From the NCBI GenBank assembly GCA_951406725.2, contig OX597833.1, positions 32,054,001-32,118,000 on the forward strand: a stretch of 64,000 nucleotides of DNA. The letters are read 5' to 3'. Made by a program: the position numbers and the translations under genes. The DNA is from Octopus vulgaris (lineage: Eukaryota). A model generated the notes under the pieces. It was given only the letters and a program-made list of their open reading frames with translations, searched no databases and was not told the origin of the DNA. Position 1 is the first letter of the stretch, and each line of letters starts with the position of its first letter. This document shows, one piece after another, positions 1,379 to 35,700 of this stretch.

Positions 1379-2529
1379 AAAGACATTGAATTTAATTAAA
1401 TTAGAACAGATGGACACATTAGTATAATTATACCTAAAATCTCCAAGATGTTAAGGAGATAGACAAAGAACATGCTGTCTCACTCCAGTTTAGAAGTTAC
1501 TGAATTTTCAAGAAGATATACATTGTTACAGACTCTGCCTGTCACTGACTTTTTTGTCTTTACGGGGTCAGTTTTAATTTATAGACTAGTTTATCAAATC
1601 CCTTATATATCTAAGGCTGAGAGAACAGAGGGCAGTATCTGTTAGGGGTATAGCTGAAGTTGCAGACAGACATCATAGTTGGTATAGTCATAAAAATCAA
1701 GATTTATTCGAAGCAATATCATGCGGTTTGGTAAAGGAAAACTTAAAACAAGATGTTAGGGGGTCTCTCACTAGCAGACCATTGATAATGAAACAAGGAA
1801 AGTCTTATCATGTAGTACTATAGTTAAATATTTTAAACAATGCTGCTATATTGTATACAGTTAAAGTTTAGGGTTATTCAAAGGATTATTGAGAAGAATA
1901 CTATAACAATAGGATAGAAATTTATGAATACTTTTCAATATTACACCAAACTTTACCACAGTAGAGGGAGGAAAAGAAATTATCCTGAAATTGTTTAATA
2001 TTTATACATATTGTGCACTTAAATACTAACTCATCAGATGGTATCTGTGAATATTGATTAATTGGTATATACTGGTATTAATAAAGGAGTATTAAGGTAA
2101 AGGAGCATGCTAATTATATATTAACAAAATTATAATCTAAGCAGTATTTTTTTTATAAGTAGTGAATATACCAGTATAGTTTTATATAAGCTAAGTATGA
2201 ATTTATAGAGATACAAAAATTAGAGTAATTTTATAAATAAAAGAATAAAGAAATAAAATAAAATAATCAAGTAGGGCAGAACACCATAGAAAAGGAAATA
2301 AAATGGCTTAATTACTAATACTATGGTAAAGTATATGTAGCTTATTAACACCAATAGAGAAGATTTTTAGAAAAAGTATAATAATTCAAAAGAGGTTGCC
2401 TCATCGGAGCCTCGAATTTTTTAAAATTTACCCTCTATTGTAGTAAAAATTTAGTATATACTCAAAATATAAAAAAAAAAATGTTATCCTTTTGTTAAAA
2501 TTTGCATGGCGGAAGTCGTTCGGAGAGGG

Positions 2530-3977
2530 ACTCTCTTAAGGCACAATCGACATGATCTTTTGTGCCCGCCAACTCCAGGAGAAATGTCAAGAACAACAAC
2601 AGCCTGCAATGTTCATCTTCTGAGATCTAAAGAAAACCTTTGACAAGATCCCTCGTCCTGCAATGTGGGCCGTCCTTGCTCGGTTTGGATGTCCGGAGGA
2701 GTTCCCTGCCTTGGTTCGCTCCCTTTACGGCGGCATGGTAAGTAGAGTATGCCATCAAAATGCTCTCACATACCCGTTTCTAGTCATTGGGAGTTTTAAG
2801 CAAGGATGCATTCTGGCACCAATCTGTTCCTCTTTGTACATGGCCGCCTTGTTCAACGAAATCTCGCTAGCTTCGCCTTCCACCAGCATGCGCTATCGCT
2901 TGGATGGCGGACTTCTTCAATCTCGCACGTCTCCACGAAAAGACGGGCACCTCCGCCATCTCAGTCCGTGAGATGCAGTATGCCGACGACAATGCTACCC
3001 CGAACCGGGCCGTAGATGGCTTACAAAGGACAGCTGATCTTTACAACGTGGCTTACGAATGCTTAAGGATGCAGGTAAACACATTAAAGACCAAGACCTT
3101 GATCTAGCCTGCAGCAGGCCGCAACAGTCCACCCACGAAAGCTAGCATCAACGGCCAACCTCTAGAAGTTGAACACTCATGCCTTGGGAGTATCCTTTCG
3201 AAAACTCCCACGTGCGAAAAAGATGTGGAGAACCGGATCATGTTGGCCCACTCAGCCTTGGGTAGACTCAGCCAACGTGTATTCTTCAATCACGCAGTGT
3301 CCATTCGGACAAATATCAAGGTCTTCTGTGTCATTGTCCTGACAACTCTTCACTACGCTACGCTTCTGAGACTTGGACGCTGTATCGCTGTAACTTCAAG
3401 CGCCTTGAATGCTTCCAGCAATCCAAACTACGACAAAGCTTCAATATTTGATGGAAAGATCATATTACCAACAACGAAGTTCTTCGCTGCGCCTCACTAC
3501 TAAGCGTCGAAGCCATCATTCTTCGCTATCGTCTCCGCTGGGCAGGTCACATCCAGCGTATGGAGCCCTCTCGTCTCCCGAAGATCATGCCCTACGAGAA
3601 CCTGCTACCGGAACAAAACCCAGAGGAAGTCGGATATTCCGTTTTAAAGAACAGCTTAAACGGATCCTGGCTCAAACTAATCTCCAGCCATCCCCATGGG
3701 AACAGATTGCCATTGATAGAACAACCTGGAGGACTGCTATCCGCAATGGAGACAGCTTCTTCGAGCAGAACAGACAACAGAAAAAAGAGGTAAAACGCAA
3801 GAGAAAAAAGGAGCATTCTTCAACATCCTCGATCCGCACCCACCATCCTGTGTGAATTCTGGCCATAACTCTTTCACCACTGACTTGGACTCCAAAGGCA
3901 TATTCGGTACAAACATCTGGCTGGAGACTGGATGGAGACTGACGAACCGAATGCTCGGATACGAGCTGGAGCCGACG
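2530..3977 (+). mobile_element. 5'-truncated RTE-clade LINE (RT and C-terminus), frameshifted; same family as 56422-59703
   Basis: KQGCILAP, MQYADD and VNTLKTK motifs; closely similar in sequence to 58323-59703. Confidence 0.92.
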
Positions 3978-5949: not shown

Positions 5950-8283
5950 ATACATTGTCCCTGCATTACACACAAGACATACAACATTGATGGGGATACC
6001 CTTGTAACTGTAATTCAGAAACTTCAGCATGGAAAAGCACCTGAAAGAGACTTGATTGTTGGATATTGGTACAAGAAGCAAACCTACTGACCATATCTTA
6101 CCAACCTGTACCAGCAAGCTATCAATGGGAACAATAGCATACCACACTGGATAGCTGTGGCAGAGACAAAACTGATCACCAAATGCGGAACCACCCACAT
6201 GGCAAAAGACTACCGGCCAATTGCATGTCAGAACTTAATGCATAAAATATATACAGCATGGAACCTCTTCCTTCAAGACCATTGTGAAAGTAATAACATC
6301 ATCACAGTACAACAAGCAGCTGGGAAGAAGAGAGTCTGGGGATGTGTCGAGCAATTGTTAATAAACAAAACTGTAATCTCAGAGGTGCAGAAACACAGAA
6401 GGAACATAGTTTCAATGTGGTTAGACTACAAGAGAACGTTTAACTCTGTTCCCCCACTCATGGATGCTTGAAGCCCTTCAACTTGCTAAACTTCTAGTGA
6501 GTATAGTGAAAGTTATAGCTGACCTGACTTCATCGTGGGCCACCATCTTGAAATTAAGCACAAGGAATGATTGTATTGTCACTGATAGAATACGGTATCG
6601 CAGAGGCATATTCCAACGGGACAGCCTCTCTGTGATGTCTATACTTTCTGTAAATCCCTTGTCATTCATGTTAAGGAAGTCTGAAGGATATCTCACTGGT
6701 TCACAAGGAAACAGAAATACTAAAATTACTTACTCTTTCTTTGTGGATGACTTTAAACTATATGCAAAGAACATGCATGAGATGAAAAAGTGCCTTGACC
6801 TGGTTATAGCATTCTCAAAAGATATATATGACTGGAATTTGTTCAGGAGAAATGTTGCTATATGGTTGTGAAAGAGGGAAAACTGTATATCTGACAAGCA
6901 ACATCACCATCAGTGACTTTACTGCTTCCCCTATATCTGATGAGGAATGTTACAGATATATATTGGGGTGAATGAAAACATATCTTACAATGGCACCTCT
7001 AACAAAACACGTATCACTAAAGAATATTACAGCCGAATAAAGAAAATTTGGACCTCGGAACTCTGCATTCAACAAAACTGGCCCACAATGTGTTTGCAAT
7101 GCCAGTATTTATACAAATATTTGGGCTGCATGATTGGACGCTTGATGAGATCCGTGAAAACCCGGAAGGTACTAACCAGTATACATAATTTCCACATCAA
7201 CCTGCACTGCCTGCACCTAAAACGATAAGAAGGCGGTAGAGGCTTAACATCGATTCAAACTGCCTTCGAATGTCGTATCATATCCCTTCGGCCACATCTT
7301 TTAACCAGTAAGTGCATCCCTTGACCAAGTTTGCATACATAAGGCTGATAACATCATAAGGCTTGGAAGGCAGCTTCTTGAGCAGCAGTCCTTATTTGAT
7401 AACCTTAAATACATGCCCAAAGAAGTCGTACGATTCTACCGCAACATATCATCAGATGAAAGGATGAGCGTATATGAGCAGAAGACCATGCACGGATATG
7501 CTAATAGAAAGCTTCGGGATGAAAGTAACATTAATCATCAAAGCAGTTTATCATGGGCCAACAACCAGATTACTATCTCCCACTTTGAAGGGTATGCGTT
7601 TGCAATCCAGGATCAGGAAATATCAACCAAATACCTGACGCACAAAGAAGGACAGAGATGCAGGAAAAGCAGTATACTGTGACAACCGATGCAGACTTTC
7701 TGGAGTTAACACCGAAGATATCACCCTCATCATAAGTAGTTGTCCGAAAATGTCATCACGATGTTATCTACCGATGAGACATGATGCTGCTAGGACACTA
7801 TGTAATGAAATCTGTCGGAAGGATAACCCCGAGTACAATGAAATAAGAACTCACAGTATGATAGAAGCCATAGCCACTCATAATAAAAAGGAGCACTGGT
7901 GGAATGTCCCAGTGAAAACCTCAATAAAAGGTAAACACAATTGAGCTGATATAATGATTTGGGATGGAGAAAAGAAACTGTGTACAGTTGTGGAAATCAA
8001 CAGCCCAGCGGATGTTAACACAAAGGTGAAAATCAGTGAAAAAGAGAACACCTACCCTGAACTATTGAGAAATCTGCAGTTACTCTATCCAGATTACAAG
8101 TTCAGGTTTATACCTGTAATTATTGGAGTAGTGAGATATGTAACACACTGCCTAAATACCAATCTTGAGAAATTAGGCTTCTCAAAACCAGAAAGGAGAA
8201 ATTTATTTCTAAGTCTACAGATCCAAGCCATCACTGGAACTGTAAAAATATGTAAAACTTTCCAGAAGTTTTACATATTTAAG
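5950..8283 (+). mobile_element. 5'-truncated R4/Dong-like non-LTR retrotransposon (RT, CCHC knuckle, restriction-like endonuclease), pseudogenised; probable 3' UTR resumes after the mariner (9538-9915)
   Basis: DYRPIAC, WLDYKRTFNSVP, RRGIFQRDSLS, FFVDD, CRL..EDI..IISSC, RHD, DIMIWD...VVEI. Confidence 0.88.
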
Positions 8284-17239: not shown

Positions 17240-18350
<1,111 letters not shown>

Positions 18351-18696
18351 TCTCTGATCGTGAGCAGAAGTAGTGGGGGAGCATCACAGCCATGTGTTGA
18401 GAGGAATTATTCTGATCGGGCAGAAGTAGTGGGGAGCATTTGGATAATTCACCTCTGGAAATATGGGTGTTTTGTTCAACGCTCTTAACCAACACTTTTG
18501 ACTGGGATGGCTACTTGACCTGAAGAAAATTCTAACTGCCCCCACCCAAGGTCATGCGCTGTTTATCTTGATATGAGATCACCATGTCGCGCAAATATGG
18601 TTGTGATGCATGTGTCTGGTGTACTCTTATTAGATGGGTATACTGGGCTTCGTATATTTTACCCCAGTGTCACTTTGATGGCACGCACTGTTCACC

Positions 18697-18749
<53 letters not shown>

Positions 18750-18841
18750 GCCAATCATGGTTAAGGTTTCCCGCCCGGCACGTCCGAAACTGCCCGCATC
18801 AGTTATCTGGTGAAGAAAAGTTTTGGTTGCGCGCACGCGCA

Positions 18842-20040
18842 TTAATAGAGTAAAATCAAAATTTTAATTGATTGTTGAATGTTTTGTCGAATGAGTGTTT
18901 CGTAGTAGTAGAATGCGCAGTTGCATTTGTATGTTTGTATGTTCTGTTGTTGTAGTTGAGAGTTGAAATATTGTTTAATGAAGTTATCTCCGTGTAGTCA
19001 TTTTTCGTCAGATATTTCTGGTGAGCCGACCCATTGTATGTCCGGTGTGTATGGAGTGTAATCAAAGTTACACATGGGTGTGATTTGGCCGTGTATGAGA
19101 CATGCCTGTGCAGATTGTTCTGGATCGAACTTGCATTTGTTGTGTTGGTTTTCTATATCTCTTATGCATGCCATGGCTAGGTCGTCGTATTTGTCTTTAT
19201 TGTATGTCAGTAGTGTGTCGTATTTAAATCTTTTCGGTGTGGTTTCAAGTTCTTGTAGTTTTCTTTTTACTTTGTTGATGTTTCTTTTCGTGTTAGGAGA
19301 GTCGTAGCCAGATGGTATAATGGTATATAAGTCTGATGTTGGTGGTGTGTTGTCTGAAATGTATATGTCAGTGTATTTGTGGTCTATGTATTTGTCTATG
19401 TATGATTTCTATATCGTGGGCTTAGTTCTATTTTGCCCCATTCTTTTAGTTGAGGCATTGATCTGTGAGTGACGTAGTAAAAGAGTCTATTTTTTATGGT
19501 TTGTTCGTCTTGTGGGACGACTCTTCATGGTTCTGTGATGCTAGTCGATAGGCTCGGCGTTCTTTAGAGGATACGTTCCTGTTGATGCTTGACGTTTATG
19601 TAAGTGTCTGTTCCTTCGAGAATGCACTTGCCCTCTTCTACGTTGTTGTTTGTAAACCACATTTCATCTGTGTAGATCATTGGTTTATCTATGCAACTGC
19701 CGAATGTGAAACTGTTGGCAGCTTGGCATCTCATGCGTCCGCTGTTCATGAGTCCGTTACGTATCGATCGCAATATATATGTGTAAGGAGTTAGGTTGTC
19801 TTGGAAGACGATGTTGAAGGCGTTTTTTTCGCAGTCTTGTTCTGATGTAGTCTGCATCTTGATCAGTTTCGAGTGTTTACGAATGTTTTCGGTGTATTTA
19901 TAGGTGTGATCGTACCAGTGTTCAATGGCATTGCTGCCAGTGGGCGTGTCTTATTTGTTAACAAAGTGCCTGGAAATGTATTTGAGTGGTCGTTTTGTAT
20001 CTTCATTGTGTTGTATGGTCTGCCCTATTTTTCTATTTTT
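18842..20040 (-). pseudogene. NS1: NS1 remnant: superfamily 3 helicase plus C-terminal region; no N-terminal HUH nuclease motifs seen and Walker A deleted
   Basis: TYILRSI (tail of Walker A), FTFGSCIDKPMIYTDE (Walker B), VEEGKCILEG..INVKHQ (B'), TPSLSTS (C-like), KNRLF (Arg finger); a frameshifted C-terminal frame continues through one TGA to TAA at 18842. Confidence 0.85.
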
Positions 20041-20097
20041 AACCGCTGTACCGCGTAAGTGCCTGCTTGGGTGTGTCACTGAATGTTGAGGGAAATT

Positions 20098-21672
20098 TCA
20101 ACCTGGGGTAACTACTTCAGCTACGTCTGGGTCTATTGTTGCAATGACTTGTGAGTGGTTGAATTGTTCGTATTTGCATACGATTTCGATGTAGTAGGTG
20201 AGGTCGAAAGTGAAGTAGATAACTGGTTGTGTATTGTTCGGCCTGAGTATGACTGGTACGTTAATTAGTTGATGTCTTCTTGTAGTTGATGTCTGCTTGT
20301 CCTGGCTCTCTTGCTCTTCTTCTGACTTCTTCGAAGCCTTCTTTAATCTCTGTTGAATGGCTGCCGACGAACGGTGCTGTACCTGTGTCTAAACCTCCGT
20401 CCCATGTCATGTCGACGTTTACATTTCTTTCCCAATTAAATGCGTCTCCGAATGTGTTTGTGAGTCCCGATACGGTGTAGTTGGTGTTTTGTGTGAAATT
20501 TGTTAGACCTATTTCTAATCTGGAAGGGTTTTCCCAAAGTGTTGGAAAGTGTCACCTTGTCGTAGTGTTTTTTTTTTATCTCATGTCTCTCCAGTCGTGT
20601 AATGAAAGCAGGTACATTTAAGTTTTCTTGTTTTCTCCTTCCATTTTTGTATCTGGTGTGTATTTGTTTATGAGATGTGTCGGTGCGCAGTATGTAAGTT
20701 CGTACGTCGGTAATTCGAGGTTTGTGTAAGTGGTTGGTTCTGTGAGTCTTAATCCTTGGTTAGGTAGTTTTGATATTGATTTTAGGTTGCCGTGATCTAT
20801 GTATTTTCCTGTGTCTACGTATATTTCGAAGTAAGGTGTGAGAGAATCGACGAAGATTTCTTCGTTGTTTCTTGTTGTCCATTCTCCGCACATGATGTCG
20901 TCTATTTTGAAGCCTTGTTTGGTTATTCTGTACGACGTCGCCATTTGTGTCATTGCTTCCCATTGTGAGGGTTTTATTCATGATGTCATTTAGTAAGGGA
21001 CGATGTAGTCTTTGGATTTTGCGGTTCCTTTGCAGTAATGTCCGATGTTGTGGTAGGTTTTTTCGCCTGTAGAGTCGAATTTTTCAAACTCGATTTTTGC
21101 TTGGTTCATGTCTGTGGTTCTGATTGAGCTTCTGAACGTGCGTGACACGATAAATTTTCTGGTAAAGTTTCCGGAGTCGTCTTGGATTCCTGTTGATTGC
21201 ACGTTTGTGTTCGCATGGCTGGGTTGCGCAGCGACTGCAGCGTTTGCGTTGTTTTGCGTGTTGTCCATAACTTGATTATGGACAGGGTTAGGAAAGAGAG
21301 AACGATAAGTATCTGAATAGTCCGGTCTGAAGATTTGATCGAGTCCAAGATTGTGTTTAGCGTAGATAATTCCTGCTGATACGAGTCTCAGTGGGCCTTG
21401 TTGTATTGCTCCGTTGATGAATTGTTTGTCTGCGTCAGTAGTATCTTTTTGAGGGTCGGTGTAGTGTAGGTCATGGACTTTTGCTAGTCTGTTTAGTTCG
21501 TTTAGAGGTTCTTCGTTTATTTTTTTCGAAGATGTGTGTTCCGGGTCCTAGAAAATTTGTAGCCAGGTGGGTGTAATTCGTATGTTTCTTCTTTTAGAAG
21601 ATCGTCGAATTCTTTTTCGATTCTTTTGCTTTTGATATCTGGCTTCTCCTCCTGATGTTTTATTGGTGGCAT
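20098..21672 (-). pseudogene. VP1: Parvoviral capsid gene: VP1-unique PLA2 domain plus major capsid protein, with frameshifts and stops
   Basis: ATG at 21672 (MPPIKHQEEK..). HPPGYKF/LGPG Ca-binding loop at 21540-21561 with a 1-nt insertion. NELNRLAKVHDLHY..DADKQF catalytic HDxxY at 21461-21475. Runs in frame into ORF 21268-20990, then IVPY*..IKPSQWEAM..YRITKQGFKI, FEIYVD, TLRQGDTF (20551-20565) and IYFTFDLTYYIEIVC. Confidence 0.85.
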
Positions 21673-21689
21673 GGAAAAAGTATAAATGA

Positions 21690-21719
21690 TACTGTCACTG
21701 GTTTCCAGCGGTTTTTATA
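21690..21719 (-). promoter_or_regulatory. Putative viral capsid promoter (TATA box plus initiator)
   Basis: TATAAAAA at 21719-21712, followed by CAGT/TCATT initiator-like motifs and the ATG at 21672. Confidence 0.6.
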
Positions 21720-21784
21720 GTGCGGCACCTTTTTCTACCAGCGCCAGCACTTTCACTAAGGTGTCTCTCCCTAAGTAATTGAAT

Positions 21785-23403
21785 TCGATTAAGAAGGGAA
21801 AGGCAAGAAACTAGGAAAAATTGAGCAATGGTTAAGAGGAACCTGGTAAAATGGGAAAAAGACCGAACGAGAAAAATTAAGGAAGAAGTGTAAAATACGG
21901 AAGAACGGGTTTGATACAGTAATAGAGCAGTTAAAATAGAGGATCATGGCAAAAAGCCAGAAGATCAGAAGATTTGTGAACAGAAATAAGCAGATCGAGG
22001 AGAACAGATTGTTAAAAAATAACCCGAAGTAATTCTTCCGAACGTTAGAAGGAGACAATGGGGAAAACGTTGTTCTTGATTTTGGAGCTGAATGACATTC
22101 TACACAGAGAAATGAAAGTCAATGTTGGCGAGGCGTATAAAAAAAAAAGGTGAAGATGGTGTTGAAATCCAACCCGAATGCCAAACATTTGATTACCGCA
22201 ATGAATATCTGGGCATTTGCGGTGGTCAGATACAGTGCGTCCATCCTCGAATGGACTAAGGAGGAAATATCCACACTGGATAGAAGGACAGGAAAATTGA
22301 TGACGCTGCATGGGGCGCTACATCCTAAAAAAAACTTAAACAGACAGTATATGAAAAGAAAGACTGGTGGCAGAGGACTAATTAGTATAGACCATTGTAT
22401 AAGGAACAAAAGCAGAACGCTTGCCGAGTATTTGATGAATAGTGGTGAAGACCTGCTGCAATATGCTGCGAAAGTGTAAATGCAGATGAAATGATGGAAA
22501 GGAAGAGTTTAACCAAAGAGCTGAGGAGATGAGCAAAGATGACCTTGAAATGAGAATGCATGGACAGTTTGAAAGGAATACACAGGACGTTAAGGATAAT
22601 ACAGCACCGTGGGTATGGCTTGAGCAAGATTTGAAGCGTACCACCGAAAGCCTGATCATTGCTGCACAAGATCAGGCTTTCGCTACCAATTCAGTGAAGT
22701 ATAACGTCTATAAAACTTCTGACACCCAGAAATGCAGACTCTCTGGAAAGAGTGTGGAAAATGTGACTCACTTGGTAAGTGGATGTGAGAGCCTTGCACT
22801 AAAAGAATACAAGCGTCGCCACAATAAAGTGTGTGTATATCTTCATTGGTTCTTATGCCTTAAATACCGATATGAAGTAACAGAGAACTGGTATGAGCAT
22901 GTACCAAGTAAAGTTATGCAGGAGGATGTAAAAGTAACGATACTCTGGGACTATGATTTTCAGACGGATTGTGTAATCGAACACCGTCGGCTGGATATTG
23001 TCATATTGAATAAAAGAGACAAATACTGTCAGATCATTGATGTAGCCATACCAAATGCCATGAATAGTGTGAGTAAAGAGGTTGTAAAGAAATCAAGTAC
23101 TCCGAATTGAAAGTGGAAATGGCAAGACTTTATCGAATGGGAGAATGTAATGTAAAAGTGATACCAGTTGTGATCGGAGCATCGGGCTCAACCCCATTGA
23201 AACTTCAAGACTTCTTAAGGCAACTGGAAATCCCATACAAGATTGATGTCTTGCAAAAAGTAGCCTTGTTGGACACAGCACACATCTTAAGGAAAACTTT
23301 ATCTGTCTGAGATCCTTGTTGTGACTTGACAGATGACTAAAGACTCCGGTGCATTTTTACCTACACTGTGTTACAAAGGAATAATAATAATAATAATAAT
23401 AAT
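21785..23403 (+). mobile_element. 5'-truncated, RT-deleted R4/Dong-like RLE non-LTR retrotransposon with (TAA)n tail
   Basis: Pre-RT segment KIRRFVNRNKQIEENRLLKNNPK joined to post-RT AMNIWAFAVVRYSA, GGRGL, AAQDQA, KCRL..ENVTHLVSGC, RHNKV, RLDIVI..IIDVAIP; tail at 23380-23403. Confidence 0.9.
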
Positions 23404-32737: not shown

Positions 32738-35700
32738 ATGGAGATTAAGCTAGGGTGTGTAAATGTGCGTGACCTGGGGTCAAAATGGAAACAAACTTGT
32801 CTCCTAGACGACCTTAGGTCATTAGATATAGATGTTTGTGTTGCGACTGAGTCCAAGCTGAACGGGCCACAAGCGTTTTCGCCTCTTCTAAATGGCTACG
32901 AGAAATTTATTTCTCCTAGTCGACGGGGAGGCGGGGGCGTGGTGGTCTTATTTAGGAAAACCTTGAATGTGCAGGTAGGAACAGTCTTTCTGGACTCAGA
33001 AGGTAGGCTGGTCCTTTTGAGTATGAGACACGTAAGTAAACAGTCCTTCAGGCTGGTAGCTGTCTACGCATTTAATGAGTGTAGACAAGCGGATTTTTTC
33101 CGGGACCTGGAGAACTTCTTAGTGACGTCAAAAACTCTTGTTGTACTAGGAGATTTAACACTGTTCTCGACGCACGGGTGGATAGTGTTGGCTCGAACGA
33201 TAGAAGAGGAAACCTTGGCTTCAAAAGGCTACTAGAAAGCTATAATCTAGTAGACCGGTACAGACTGGATGAAGCTCTCGTTCCACAGTGGACGTGGACC
33301 TAATAACGACGGTTCACTCAGACTTTATATAGATAGGATATTCATTAGGGATAGAGATAAGAATACGTTTAGTTGTCCACGATTTTGTTGTGTCCCTTAC
33401 ATGGATCACAAATTTGTGACGTGTGAGGTGTACCTAGATAAGTGTCATAAGCAGGGACCAGGGTACTGGAAGATGAACAAGTCTATTTTGACTTGTAAAA
33501 CCTTCCGTGCCCAGGTTAAGGAGTTAGTGCAGAGGACATTAACCAGTGCCATTATTGATAATAGGCGGTGGTGTACCCTCAAGCGAGCCATTCGTTCTGA
33601 GTCTATTAGATTTAGTAAACAGCCAAGTCTAGATAAGATTAGAATAGAAGGGACCTTAATTAAGGAATTAGATGAGGCCATGGAATCTGGCTCTGCGTCA
33701 GAGTGATGGCACCGAAAGCGTTTTTTCCCTTCATTTCAAAGTCAAACACGAAGAGTGTAGAGTCAGAGCTAAGCTTCGTGCGGTGGGGAGAGAGGGTATT
33801 AACGTTGCCAGATGGGTACGTCGTGTGGAGAGTCGGAGAGGCAGAGAACCTCTATCAAATCTTTAACGGACGAATATGGGCGAACGATGGAAGGACATGA
33901 AGAGATGTAAAAGGATTTTCACCAGCATTTCGCTTGGTTGTTCGGGGAGAGCGGCGGGCTGGACTGTGGGAGGTCCCTAAAGGACTTCCTCGCAGGTGGG
34001 TTGCGACTCTCGGCAATTACGGCTACGGAGGTTAAAGAGGTGCAGGGTGAGTGCACCAGGGACAAGTCGCCGGGGCTGGATGGTCTGCCTTATGAATTTT
34101 ATTGTAGCATGCTGGACTTGTTCGGACATTTGCTAGCCTGCGTCTACACAAACTGGTAGCTCTGTGAGCCAGGGAGTGGTAACACTGATCAGAAAAGACC
34201 CGAGCAAGGGAGCCCATATTAGTAACTTTAGGCCTATAACTATACTTAATATAAAGTTAAAGATTTTGGCCAATGTGCTAACGAGGAAGTTCGCGCGTGT
34301 CGCAGAGAAACTTGTTGGGGGAGCGCAGACATGCGCCATCCCAGGCAGGTCGATCCAGGAAATCTCCATCTCCTGCGCTACACCTTAGACAGGGTGGATA
34401 AATTATCCGGTAAAGGTGGGGCTCTGGTCCATTTAGACCAGAGTAAAGCTTTTGATAGAGTAGACTACCAGTATCTGGCGGCGGTCCTCGAGGCGGCTGG
34501 ACTAGGCCAAGACTTCCGTGGCTGGATCACTGCCATTTATGGCGGCATCAAATCCACAGTTCAAATAAACGGTTAGCTTTTGGTGCCATTGAAGATCGAG
34601 CGTTCCATTCGACAAGGGTGCTCCCTGTTTCCGCTTCTATATGTACTGATTCTTAAACCATTGCTGCGGATGTTGGAGAGTTTGGGGACATACCCAATGA
34701 ATTGGGATGTGGTAAGTCTGTTTCTGCATATGTGGATGACGTCAAATCACCGTATCCAATGAAGGTTAGCTGCCCAGTTTAGAGGATGCAATCAAAGGAT
34801 ACGAGGTGGTGGCAGGGAAAAAATTAACAAGGACAAGTAAATTGGCTTGCGGCTCGGCACCTGGCGTAGCAAGATGGTAACGTCCAGTGTCGTGGGGTAC
34901 TGGACGGATGGTCCTCATGTTAAGTTGCTTGGAGTCTGGTTTGGACCGGATTCTCAGACGGAGAAGAATTGGAGTAAGATGGCAGATAGGGTGGAGGCCC
35001 TAATCCGGACCTGGCCTGGAAGAGAGGGCGGAGGTGGTGCAGGTGTATATTGCCTCTGTTATCATCTACCGTCTGACCGTTGTCCCTTGCCCTAATTCAT
35101 GGCTATGCAAGTTGGTGCCACTACTCTTCTGCTTTTTGTGGAAGGGAGGAAAACCACTTGTGAGGTGCCCTGTTTGCTGCCAAGAACCGCTAAAGGGTGG
35201 GTTAGGAATGCCGTGGCTAATGATGTGCAGGCATGTGCTGAGGCTACGACACCTCTAGCTCCATCTGGATGGTGACCAGGTGTGGAATTCGCTGGCAGAG
35301 GAATTCTTTCCCCGACTGGCTTCCTTGGAGGAACTCAAACCCGACTTCATTAAAAAACGTAACACGACTGAATGGCAAAAGGAGTGCCGACAGGCACTCG
35401 TGCTAATCCATAAAGCGAGCAAGGCCGGCAGCGGGAATACCACCTCGGTATTCTATAGAGGGCTGGTAGAGCTTAAGAGGGATGGCATCCTAGGAGAAGC
35501 TCTGGGGCTCGATGAAGGCCAACTAGCCAACCTGTTTCAAAGACGTTTCAGACCGGGGTACCTGGATAACTACCAGAAATCCTTGACATGGCAGTGCTAT
35601 TGGAGTGCATTACCTGTTCGAGACAAATTGTCTAGGCATGGAATGTCTGTACCACCAGCATGCCCAAGGTACGGGTAGGACGATGAAACCATTTTGCACG

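Follow-up and report, generated by a model that had tools for sequence, protein, structure and literature searches.

A parvovirus-like endogenous element was found inside a single copy of a Dong/R4-like LINE in the window, a stretch of 64,000 nucleotides of Octopus vulgaris DNA. The order is a LINE stub, the virus in antisense and the LINE resuming about 750 nt further on, with TAA on both sides. We propose, with about even confidence, that a near-full-length parvovirus-like genome was captured while a 5'-truncated Dong/R4-like copy was inserted into a TAA tail. Capture during insertion is placed slightly ahead of later break repair, and it would be a little-described route for DNA viruses into animal genomes. 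With VP before NS1 at four loci, the fossils suggest a parvovirus-like lineage that departs from a stated family-wide rule. The locus, at about 32,072,700-32,077,400 of its contig, is dead DNA today.

The upstream half of the target tract is (TAA)17.7 at 18697-18749 on the plus strand, and its final ATA is common to the start of the LINE. It follows the 3' part of a different multicopy repeat (18336-18696, plus strand), which matched at least eight other loci, each with a (TAA)n end. Judged from the sequence, the TAA tail of this older repeat was the likely insertion target of the LINE. The downstream half is the (TAA)8 tail, or (AAT)8, at 23380-23403 (plus strand). The (TAA)n tracts that the earlier note had placed at both ends are confirmed. 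The LINE 5' stub lies at 18747-18810 on the plus strand (family positions 308-363). It is certain over 18747-18802, where 53 of 56 nt are those of the family majority, and perhaps reaches 18810 (56-64 nt), since the 8 nt that follow agree at 7 positions with LINE sequence located 6 nt farther along. The viral element occupies 18811-21795 on the minus strand (about 2,985 nt), in place of about 740-760 nt of the LINE. The LINE resumes on the plus strand with a middle piece from the pre-RT region (21796-22080, family 1108-1356) and a 3' piece (22078-23380, family 2426-3726), which holds the post-RT region, the CCHC knuckle, the restriction-like endonuclease and the 3' UTR. The virus directly abuts this plus-strand R4/Dong-type LINE with a restriction-like endonuclease, as had been noted; the junction, which has no spacer, is at about 21795/21796 rather than about 21780. 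Junction positions were taken from one assembly. A triplet microsatellite of about 1.1 kb adjoins the locus.

The virus had been thought to start at the left TAA tract. The first 53 nt or so of the supposed viral query drew 30 of the 40 scored genome matches at 89-96% identity, and 6 of the 11 long LINE stretches that were fetched carry the stub in matching orientation some 740-760 nt ahead of the counterpart of 21796 onward. Because it is repeated genome-wide and collinear in other LINE copies, 18747-18802 is LINE and not virus. Collinear LINE sequence therefore stands on either side of the virus, which is enclosed in one copy. This copy had been called simply 5'-truncated. It is truncated, and about 1.04-1.09 kb with the RT core is also missing at a 3-nt GAT overlap (22078-22080). 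A shared LINE template that was already deleted was rejected, since the GAT junction is present once in the genome. Divergence from the family majority is 5.4, 5.6 and 6.1% for the stub, the middle piece (14 mismatches over 249 aligned nt) and the 3' piece, and such equal divergence is as expected of one copy. Subfamily-diagnostic sites that could tie the stub to the 3' pieces were also sought, and 56 nt with 3 differences were too little.

TAA was present within 40 nt at 16 of the 40 family copies with a visible 5' end (0.5% for random 40-mers), and 24 of 30 copies have a TAA tail. The TAA on both flanks of the whole insert, formerly read as a sign of co-insertion, is a family trait that is uninformative about the virus; the LINE alone would give the same. 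The TAA target and tail are common to the Dong elements of the R4 clade (Dong, DongAg and DongBg, in the available text of PMC3812793), from which the window LINE differs in that this copy is broken and the family 5' end includes a duplicate of an internal segment. The family majority has a 3' frame open for 414 aa. In the translation of the L055 copy, a single ORF has apparent RT motifs and then CCHC and restriction-like endonuclease motifs, with no APE, an arrangement that Dong elements share. Pfam and PDB searches with the LINE pieces of the window gave no match. Virus-free family copies are often rearranged: of 16 hand-picked ones 9 have large deletions, overlaps of 1-7 nt mark 9 of 11 deletions, and there is one back-duplication. 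Large deletions are also present in viral loci without a LINE. No paralogous empty site was found among the 40 scored matches, and the right flank, searched over its first 450 nt, matched nowhere else. The copy L093/L107 was rejected as an empty allele: it shares the 5' start, but its flanks differ and it is an independent copy. ATGAAC on both sides was rejected as a target duplication, the left one being inside the older repeat at an expanded GAT run.

The ages of virus and LINE were compared through coding decay. The virus holds 13 stops plus frameshifts in 730 codons, and 14.0 were expected from eight LINE copies of this age (eight of nine were used; L056, 10.7% diverged, was left out). The ratio is 0.93, with a wide 95% range of 0.49-1.59 that is consistent with one age for all parts of the insert and allows the virus to be half the age of the LINE. 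The likelihood ratio is 2.8 for the same age over later insertion at a random time. The earlier note would have been contradicted by a clear age difference, and none was found.

With the LINE collinear to the left and right of the virus, either two template switches or a later insertion must be invoked. In the proposed capture, the LINE copy would have been inserting into the TAA tail of the older repeat, with the insertion site open. Two switches of DNA synthesis near the 5' junction, first off the LINE template onto viral single-stranded DNA and then back to the LINE, would have skipped about 750 nt of LINE. The enzyme may have been the RT of the LINE or a host repair polymerase, acting on the first or the second strand. 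The viral template may accordingly have been of either polarity. The deletions of the RT core and of NS1 may have arisen at insertion or later. The short stub may itself stem from a later deletion, given that large deletions are common. R2 has a related RT that is capable of back-to-back jumps and of initiation on either RNA or DNA (in the available part of PMC11581009), and double jumps are described for LINEs in the accessible text of PMC2104539. Against capture, no clear hairpin and no non-templated bases mark a jump here.

Twelve other loci in the genome are related but distinct viral fossils, and they bear on both sides of the question. The same Dong/R4-like family is at none of the 12, so the check that other viral copies abut this family failed, and 8-9 of 12 have no LINE at their ends; both counts speak against capture. 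At 3 of 12 a match to LINE coding sequence lies no more than 60 nt from an end, where a random point gives about 5%; the enrichment is weak (binomial P 0.02-0.11 for 3 of 12), and the flanks of these viral loci had supplied part of the test library. Beyond L063, two or three more viral loci adjoin LINEs. At L063 the same sandwich recurs in an unrelated CR1-like LINE: a 106-nt 5' stub of about 1.6 kb, then the virus in antisense with its promoter end toward the LINE 3' part, and 5-11 nt of LINE lost. At L086 one junction is 29 nt from the 5' end, within a CR1-like piece of about 340 nt. The collinear LINE on both sides, its equally diverged pieces and the matching ages, together with the design repeated at L063 and the L086 junction near a LINE 5' end, are among the evidence for capture, as are the LINE matches at 3 of 12 loci and the frequent rearrangement of virus-free family copies. 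The L063 LINE is 19% from its family majority and 112 VP codons there have no stop, which would also fit a later arrival of the virus. A wider idea, that several LINE clades here repeatedly swallow ssDNA virus genomes at open 5' junctions and that the virus is an undescribed capsid-first parvovirus-like lineage, is tentative and rather doubtful.

Parvoviral fossils are usually ascribed to passive break repair. A serious though somewhat less probable account of the locus has two steps: a 3.4-kb 5'-truncated Dong copy came first, and end joining later repaired a double-strand break in it with viral DNA, with about 750 nt lost and the LINE enzyme uninvolved. Integration of AAV-type DNA at breaks involves microhomologies, insertions and deletions (in the available text of PMC10659022), most of the other viral loci lack a LINE, and L086 has a flanking duplication of about 300 nt that resembles break repair. 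Deletions are also frequent in the family; the virus-free L107 has the same 5' start and a 2.4-kb deletion. Against these points, the virus must have arrived soon after the LINE, and a chance breakpoint near a LINE 5' end is needed here, at L063 and at L086.

The earlier note had proposed a single template jump in which synthesis left the LINE RNA for the 3' end of a negative-sense viral genome, the viral end being joined to the TAA target. A first-strand switch at the promoter end would fit the orientation here and at L063, and the ages agree. The foreign piece is not the 5' end of the insertion, however: the collinear stub at 18747-18802 lies between the TAA tract and the virus, and it is not a separate ordinary insertion because it has no 3' end of its own. 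A lone jump is thus very improbable and survives solely as the first half of a double switch. The argument that drew genome polarity from this geometry also fails, since a minus-strand template read from the promoter end equals a plus-strand template read from the other end; first-strand synthesis on the viral minus strand and second-strand or repair synthesis on the plus strand give the same product. Misassembly, whether as a chimera or by fusion of a contaminating virus contig to the repeat, can be imagined from the neighbouring microsatellite and the single assembly. It is hardly credible given that stops and frameshifts are as frequent in the viral genes as in the LINE, that the LINE is collinear over its three pieces and diverged to the same degree in each, and that related fossils lie at twelve other loci.

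If LINE sites do capture viruses, there would be a second, testable germ-line route besides break repair; endogenization would be tied to bursts of LINE activity, and the LINE could date the virus. No direct report of parvovirus-in-LINE chimeras was found in the literature searched, which was incomplete. In the accessible texts, the nearest likenesses are the Magnaporthe WEIRD/Mg-SINE/MGL chimeras (PMC2104539), with foreign sequence fused to a LINE in one insertion by two switches, and the L1-RNA chimeras (PMC13174262), with foreign sequence fused in one insertion. The partners of both are cellular RNAs, whereas here the partner is viral genome-type DNA, antisense and flanked left and right by one LINE, of which a stretch is lost. 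LCMV-IAP recombination and L1-made bornavirus copies (available part of PMC3205384) are alike in that a retroelement aids a non-retroviral sequence into a chromosome. Those are RNA viruses, with an LTR element or with polyA-tailed mRNA copies and target duplications; here a DNA virus with both promoters and no polyA tail lies in a non-LTR element with a restriction-like endonuclease. AAV capture at breaks by end joining, as far as PMC10659022 is accessible, shares parvoviral DNA, flank loss and the lack of clear termini, but neither a link to a LINE 5' junction nor a matching age would be expected from it.

The viral element itself consists of a VP and an NS1 gene, both broken and both on the minus strand, as had been described. 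The VP promoter region (21673-21795, TATA box about 21713-21719) matches the L063 upstream region weakly (69% over 91 nt, E 0.047). The VP remnant (19951-21672) has an N-terminal PLA2-like region, 5 stops and 4 frameshifts over 525 aligned codons, and 40% identity to the intact P0010. The VP-NS1 spacer (19858-19950, 93 nt) has a TATA box at about 19902. In the NS1 remnant (18998-19857; PF01057, E 2.9e-5), an N-terminal part of about 25 codons is fused to the helicase just past Walker A and followed by the C-terminal part; about 300 codons are gone, and there are 3-4 stops and 1-2 frameshifts. Because both promoter regions, two genes and sequence past the last ATTAAA are kept, the insert is genome-type DNA and not an mRNA copy, which upholds the earlier view. 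The NS1 is of Parvoviridae type, with PF01057 (SF3 helicase) in the window and in relatives. An H-x-H motif, presumably that of an HUH nickase, is present in P0004 and L067; the region is absent from the window copy. A capsid of Parvoviridae type with PLA2 in VP1 was recovered: PF08398 (E 9e-7) in the L086 homologue, a capsid protein in the features search (0.94), and parvovirus capsids as best fold matches, at TM about 0.2 with a low-confidence model (pLDDT 48). These features appear to be common to the window virus and the Parvoviridae with a PLA2-bearing VP1 (Parvovirinae, Densovirinae). No significant inverted repeat or fold was found at either viral end, and the spacer has no significant hairpin; six folds gave z between 0.09 and -1.59, and the termini may be lost. 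A short GC-rich palindrome near the left viral end (18828-18841, no strand assigned) is a possible remnant of a viral terminus, with folding not above chance (z -0.46 and -1.01).

The capsid-first order is real. VP precedes NS1 at 4 of 4 loci with both genes, and the reverse order occurs at none; the 93-nt spacer has a TATA box and no significant hairpin. This part of the earlier note is supported on these grounds, while its polarity argument for the order fails. No NS1 match was found upstream of any VP start, nor a VP match downstream of any NS1 piece. L108 was not counted as a fifth locus, its NS-like piece being distant with other sequence between. All parvoviruses are stated to have NS on the left in PMC11357303 (section 1.1.1), unlike these loci, where VP stands before NS1 on one strand and the family-wide rule does not hold. 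In the accessible text of PMC13426907 there is a lineage whose PLA2 ORF precedes NS1, yet its capsid gene comes after NS1. No direct report of this lineage or of capsid-first parvoviruses was found in the incomplete literature searched. As regards gene order only, it is unlikely that the virus had the usual NS-then-VP order and left fossils of circular or head-to-tail forms, or that its genome was a circle opened at the origin. The lack of a readable free genome with both genes leaves room for such a reading, the related intact proteins being known from contigs that reach 4.5-5.2 kb, with 4,470 nt for P0010 and 5,245 nt for P0066; the constant order, the spacer and the lack of matches beyond either gene go against it. 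No free viral relative with context was found among viral or metagenome contigs, nor one of VP in a longer-protein search. Intact relatives of both proteins are present in public assemblies, so the gene order is directly checkable.

Both (TAA)n tracts claimed by the earlier note, at 18697-18749 and 23380-23403, are present at those places. Between them, the minus-strand frames belong to a parvovirus-like virus (18811-21795) and the plus-strand frames to a Dong/R4-like LINE. However, the virus does not directly follow the left tract, and a 5' LINE stub (18747-18802, perhaps to 18810) is placed between the two. From left to right come a TAA tract, the LINE stub, the virus, two more LINE pieces and a TAA tract, and the RT core has been deleted where these two pieces meet, at a GAT overlap. 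The LINE pieces correspond to positions 308-363, 1108-1356 and 2426-3726 of the family majority. A different, older repeat has the left tract as its tail, and the first bases of the stub are an ATA common to that tract. Further to the left is a GAC/GAG/GAT microsatellite of about 1.1 kb (17250-18347), part of which expanded within this older repeat. More R4-like and Tx1-like LINE remnants were found by protein match at 6019-8256 and 32747-35621.

The genome (2.8 Gb, 227 contigs), in which the window is G000:C20:32054001-32118000, was searched with 18750-21780. Among the 40 scored of 69 candidate matches, 30 hit the first ~53 nt of the query, and these loci are copies of the family of the right-hand LINE. 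In six of the 11 long LINE stretches fetched, the matches to 18747-18802 and to 21796 onward share one orientation, the former being about 740-760 nt upstream. L107, an independent copy that lacks the virus, has the same start base as the stub. Copies of this family strongly show TAA targeting, which agrees with the habit of Dong elements described in the available text of PMC3812793. Deletions of at least 70 nt were found in 9 of 16 hand-picked copies, and one copy has a back-duplication. In many copies (L055, L056, L069, L070, L013, L015), the 5' end of the family opens with ~140 nt that duplicate internal family positions 2662-2803.

On the minus strand, VP spans 21672-19951 and has five stops and four frameshifts over 525 aligned codons. 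The NS1 remnant begins at 19857 and ends near 19000, with about 300 codons absent. Parvo_NS1 was matched by one viral piece in the window. Intact relatives were found solely as assembly proteins, namely NS1 of 514-642 aa and a VP of 608 aa (P0010), whose low-confidence structure model gave weak but consistent predicted matches to parvovirus capsids. A parvoviral PLA2 domain was found in the homologue at locus L086. TATA boxes precede both genes and the viral sequence extends ~55 nt beyond an ATTAAA. Therefore, the insert is genome-type DNA, and the claim that it is not an mRNA copy was borne out.

Related fossils lie at 12 further distinct loci. VP is followed by NS1 on one strand at each of the four loci that hold both genes (window, L064/L065, L067 and L086). 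The others hold NS1 only (n = 5) or VP only (n = 3), and L108 is uncertain. L064 and L065 (G000:C20:34.47-34.49 Mb), 18 kb apart and 98% identical across 9.9 kb, were counted as one duplicated locus. The recurrence of the order and the short VP-NS1 spacer therefore support the capsid-first reading, whereas the LINE geometry that had been invoked for it gives no support. In contrast, a review places NS left in all parvoviruses (PMC11357303, available part). The viral genome was possibly circular, and a folding test found no significant hairpin at either viral end.

The earlier note proposed one RT jump from the LINE RNA onto the 3' end of a negative-sense viral genome. LINE sequence on both flanks rules out a single jump and leaves a double switch or a later break patch. 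Because first- and second-strand versions of the switch read opposite viral strands, either strand fits and the negative-sense inference fails. In the double switch, synthesis at the open insertion site would have passed from LINE to virus and back to LINE. We give about an even chance that such switching during insertion made the sandwich. It is favoured by two or three breakpoints near LINE 5' ends, by the readiness of the Dong family to yield rearranged copies and by matching ages. Divergence from the family majority is 3/56, 14/249 and 6.1% for the three LINE pieces and 5.1-7.6% for 17 of 18 sibling copies. In eight siblings of such divergence, stops and frameshifts together number 1.9 per 100 codons. 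By this calibration 14.0 are expected in 730 viral codons and 13 were counted (ratio 0.93, 95% range 0.49-1.59), a count that is approximate with references 40-52% identical. Clearly different ages were thus not seen. The likelihood ratio is 2.8 in favour of equal age over a uniformly later viral arrival. In addition, the related R2 RT jumps on RNA or DNA (PMC11581009) and double jumps are documented (PMC2104539), according to the available parts of both papers. Alternatively, the virus may have patched a later break, which we regard as somewhat doubtful. Break capture is the established route of AAV DNA in the available part of PMC10659022, deletions are frequent here whether LINE is present or not, and the majority of viral fossils are without LINE.

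In the available texts, chimeras of a virus and a retroelement have been described with RNA viruses (PMC3205384) and the partners in L1 chimeras are cellular RNAs (PMC13174262), whereas the window partner is a virus with parvovirus-like genome-type DNA. Transposons next to parvoviral fossils were already noted in the available part of PMC5013282. Our literature search found no published case of a LINE enclosing a parvoviral genome, nor any parvovirus reported to have VP first, and the supplementary tables of PMC5013282 may list the lineage.

The Dong-type family of the window is absent from the ~10-kb stretches fetched for the 12 other viral loci, whose abutment on it had been suggested as a check. 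At two loci, other R4-like pieces gave weak protein matches, at distances of over 1 kb from the virus. A LINE coding match adjoins three of the 12 (P 0.02-0.11 depending on how ends are counted, with a library that favoured these families). The background from 200 kb of evenly spaced stretches is 3.6%, or 5% including a 60-nt margin. The clade labels CR1, Tx1 and RTE are those we presume from motifs plus RVT_1 hits.

L063 (2720-5221; G000:C4:166.666 Mb) is a second sandwich, in a CR1-like LINE that has an RT match and reaches the viral promoter end. Beyond the virus the same family continues for 106 nt, offset upstream by 5-11 nt on the family coordinates. As in the window, the virus is antisense to the LINE and its promoter faces the LINE 3' part. 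This LINE diverges by 19% from the majority sequence of its family and is possibly older than its virus. The promoter-side junction carries a 28-nt copy of VP sequence, and the same viral end has a GAATTC-centred motif both in L063 and in the window. In L062 (2236-8258; G000:C19:23.966 Mb), a Tx1-like mosaic holds an NS1 fragment in sense, with an ORF1 piece on each side, and the mosaic may record successive template switches. Of its four ORF1 segments, two that face each other across the virus share 80% identity. In L061, a 5' piece from an RTE-like repeat precedes the virus, and the opposite flank of the virus has no LINE. Immediately upstream of the NS1 fragment there, tandem coding repeats (2270-3556), presumably ankyrin-like, are fused to RTE-like 5' pieces that are themselves repeated. 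In L086 (3451-7260; G000:C18:6.79 Mb), VP and then the NS1 start are flanked by a direct duplication of ~300 nt, whose end lies 29 nt into a CR1-like piece. The left junction carries a short stretch of that CR1-like end in inverted orientation, and the spacer between VP and NS1 is interrupted by a further CR1-like piece. At L061:6415-6780 and L108:3847-4134, near fossils of the present lineage, are NS1-like pieces (PF01057) from a parvoviral lineage that is more distantly related.
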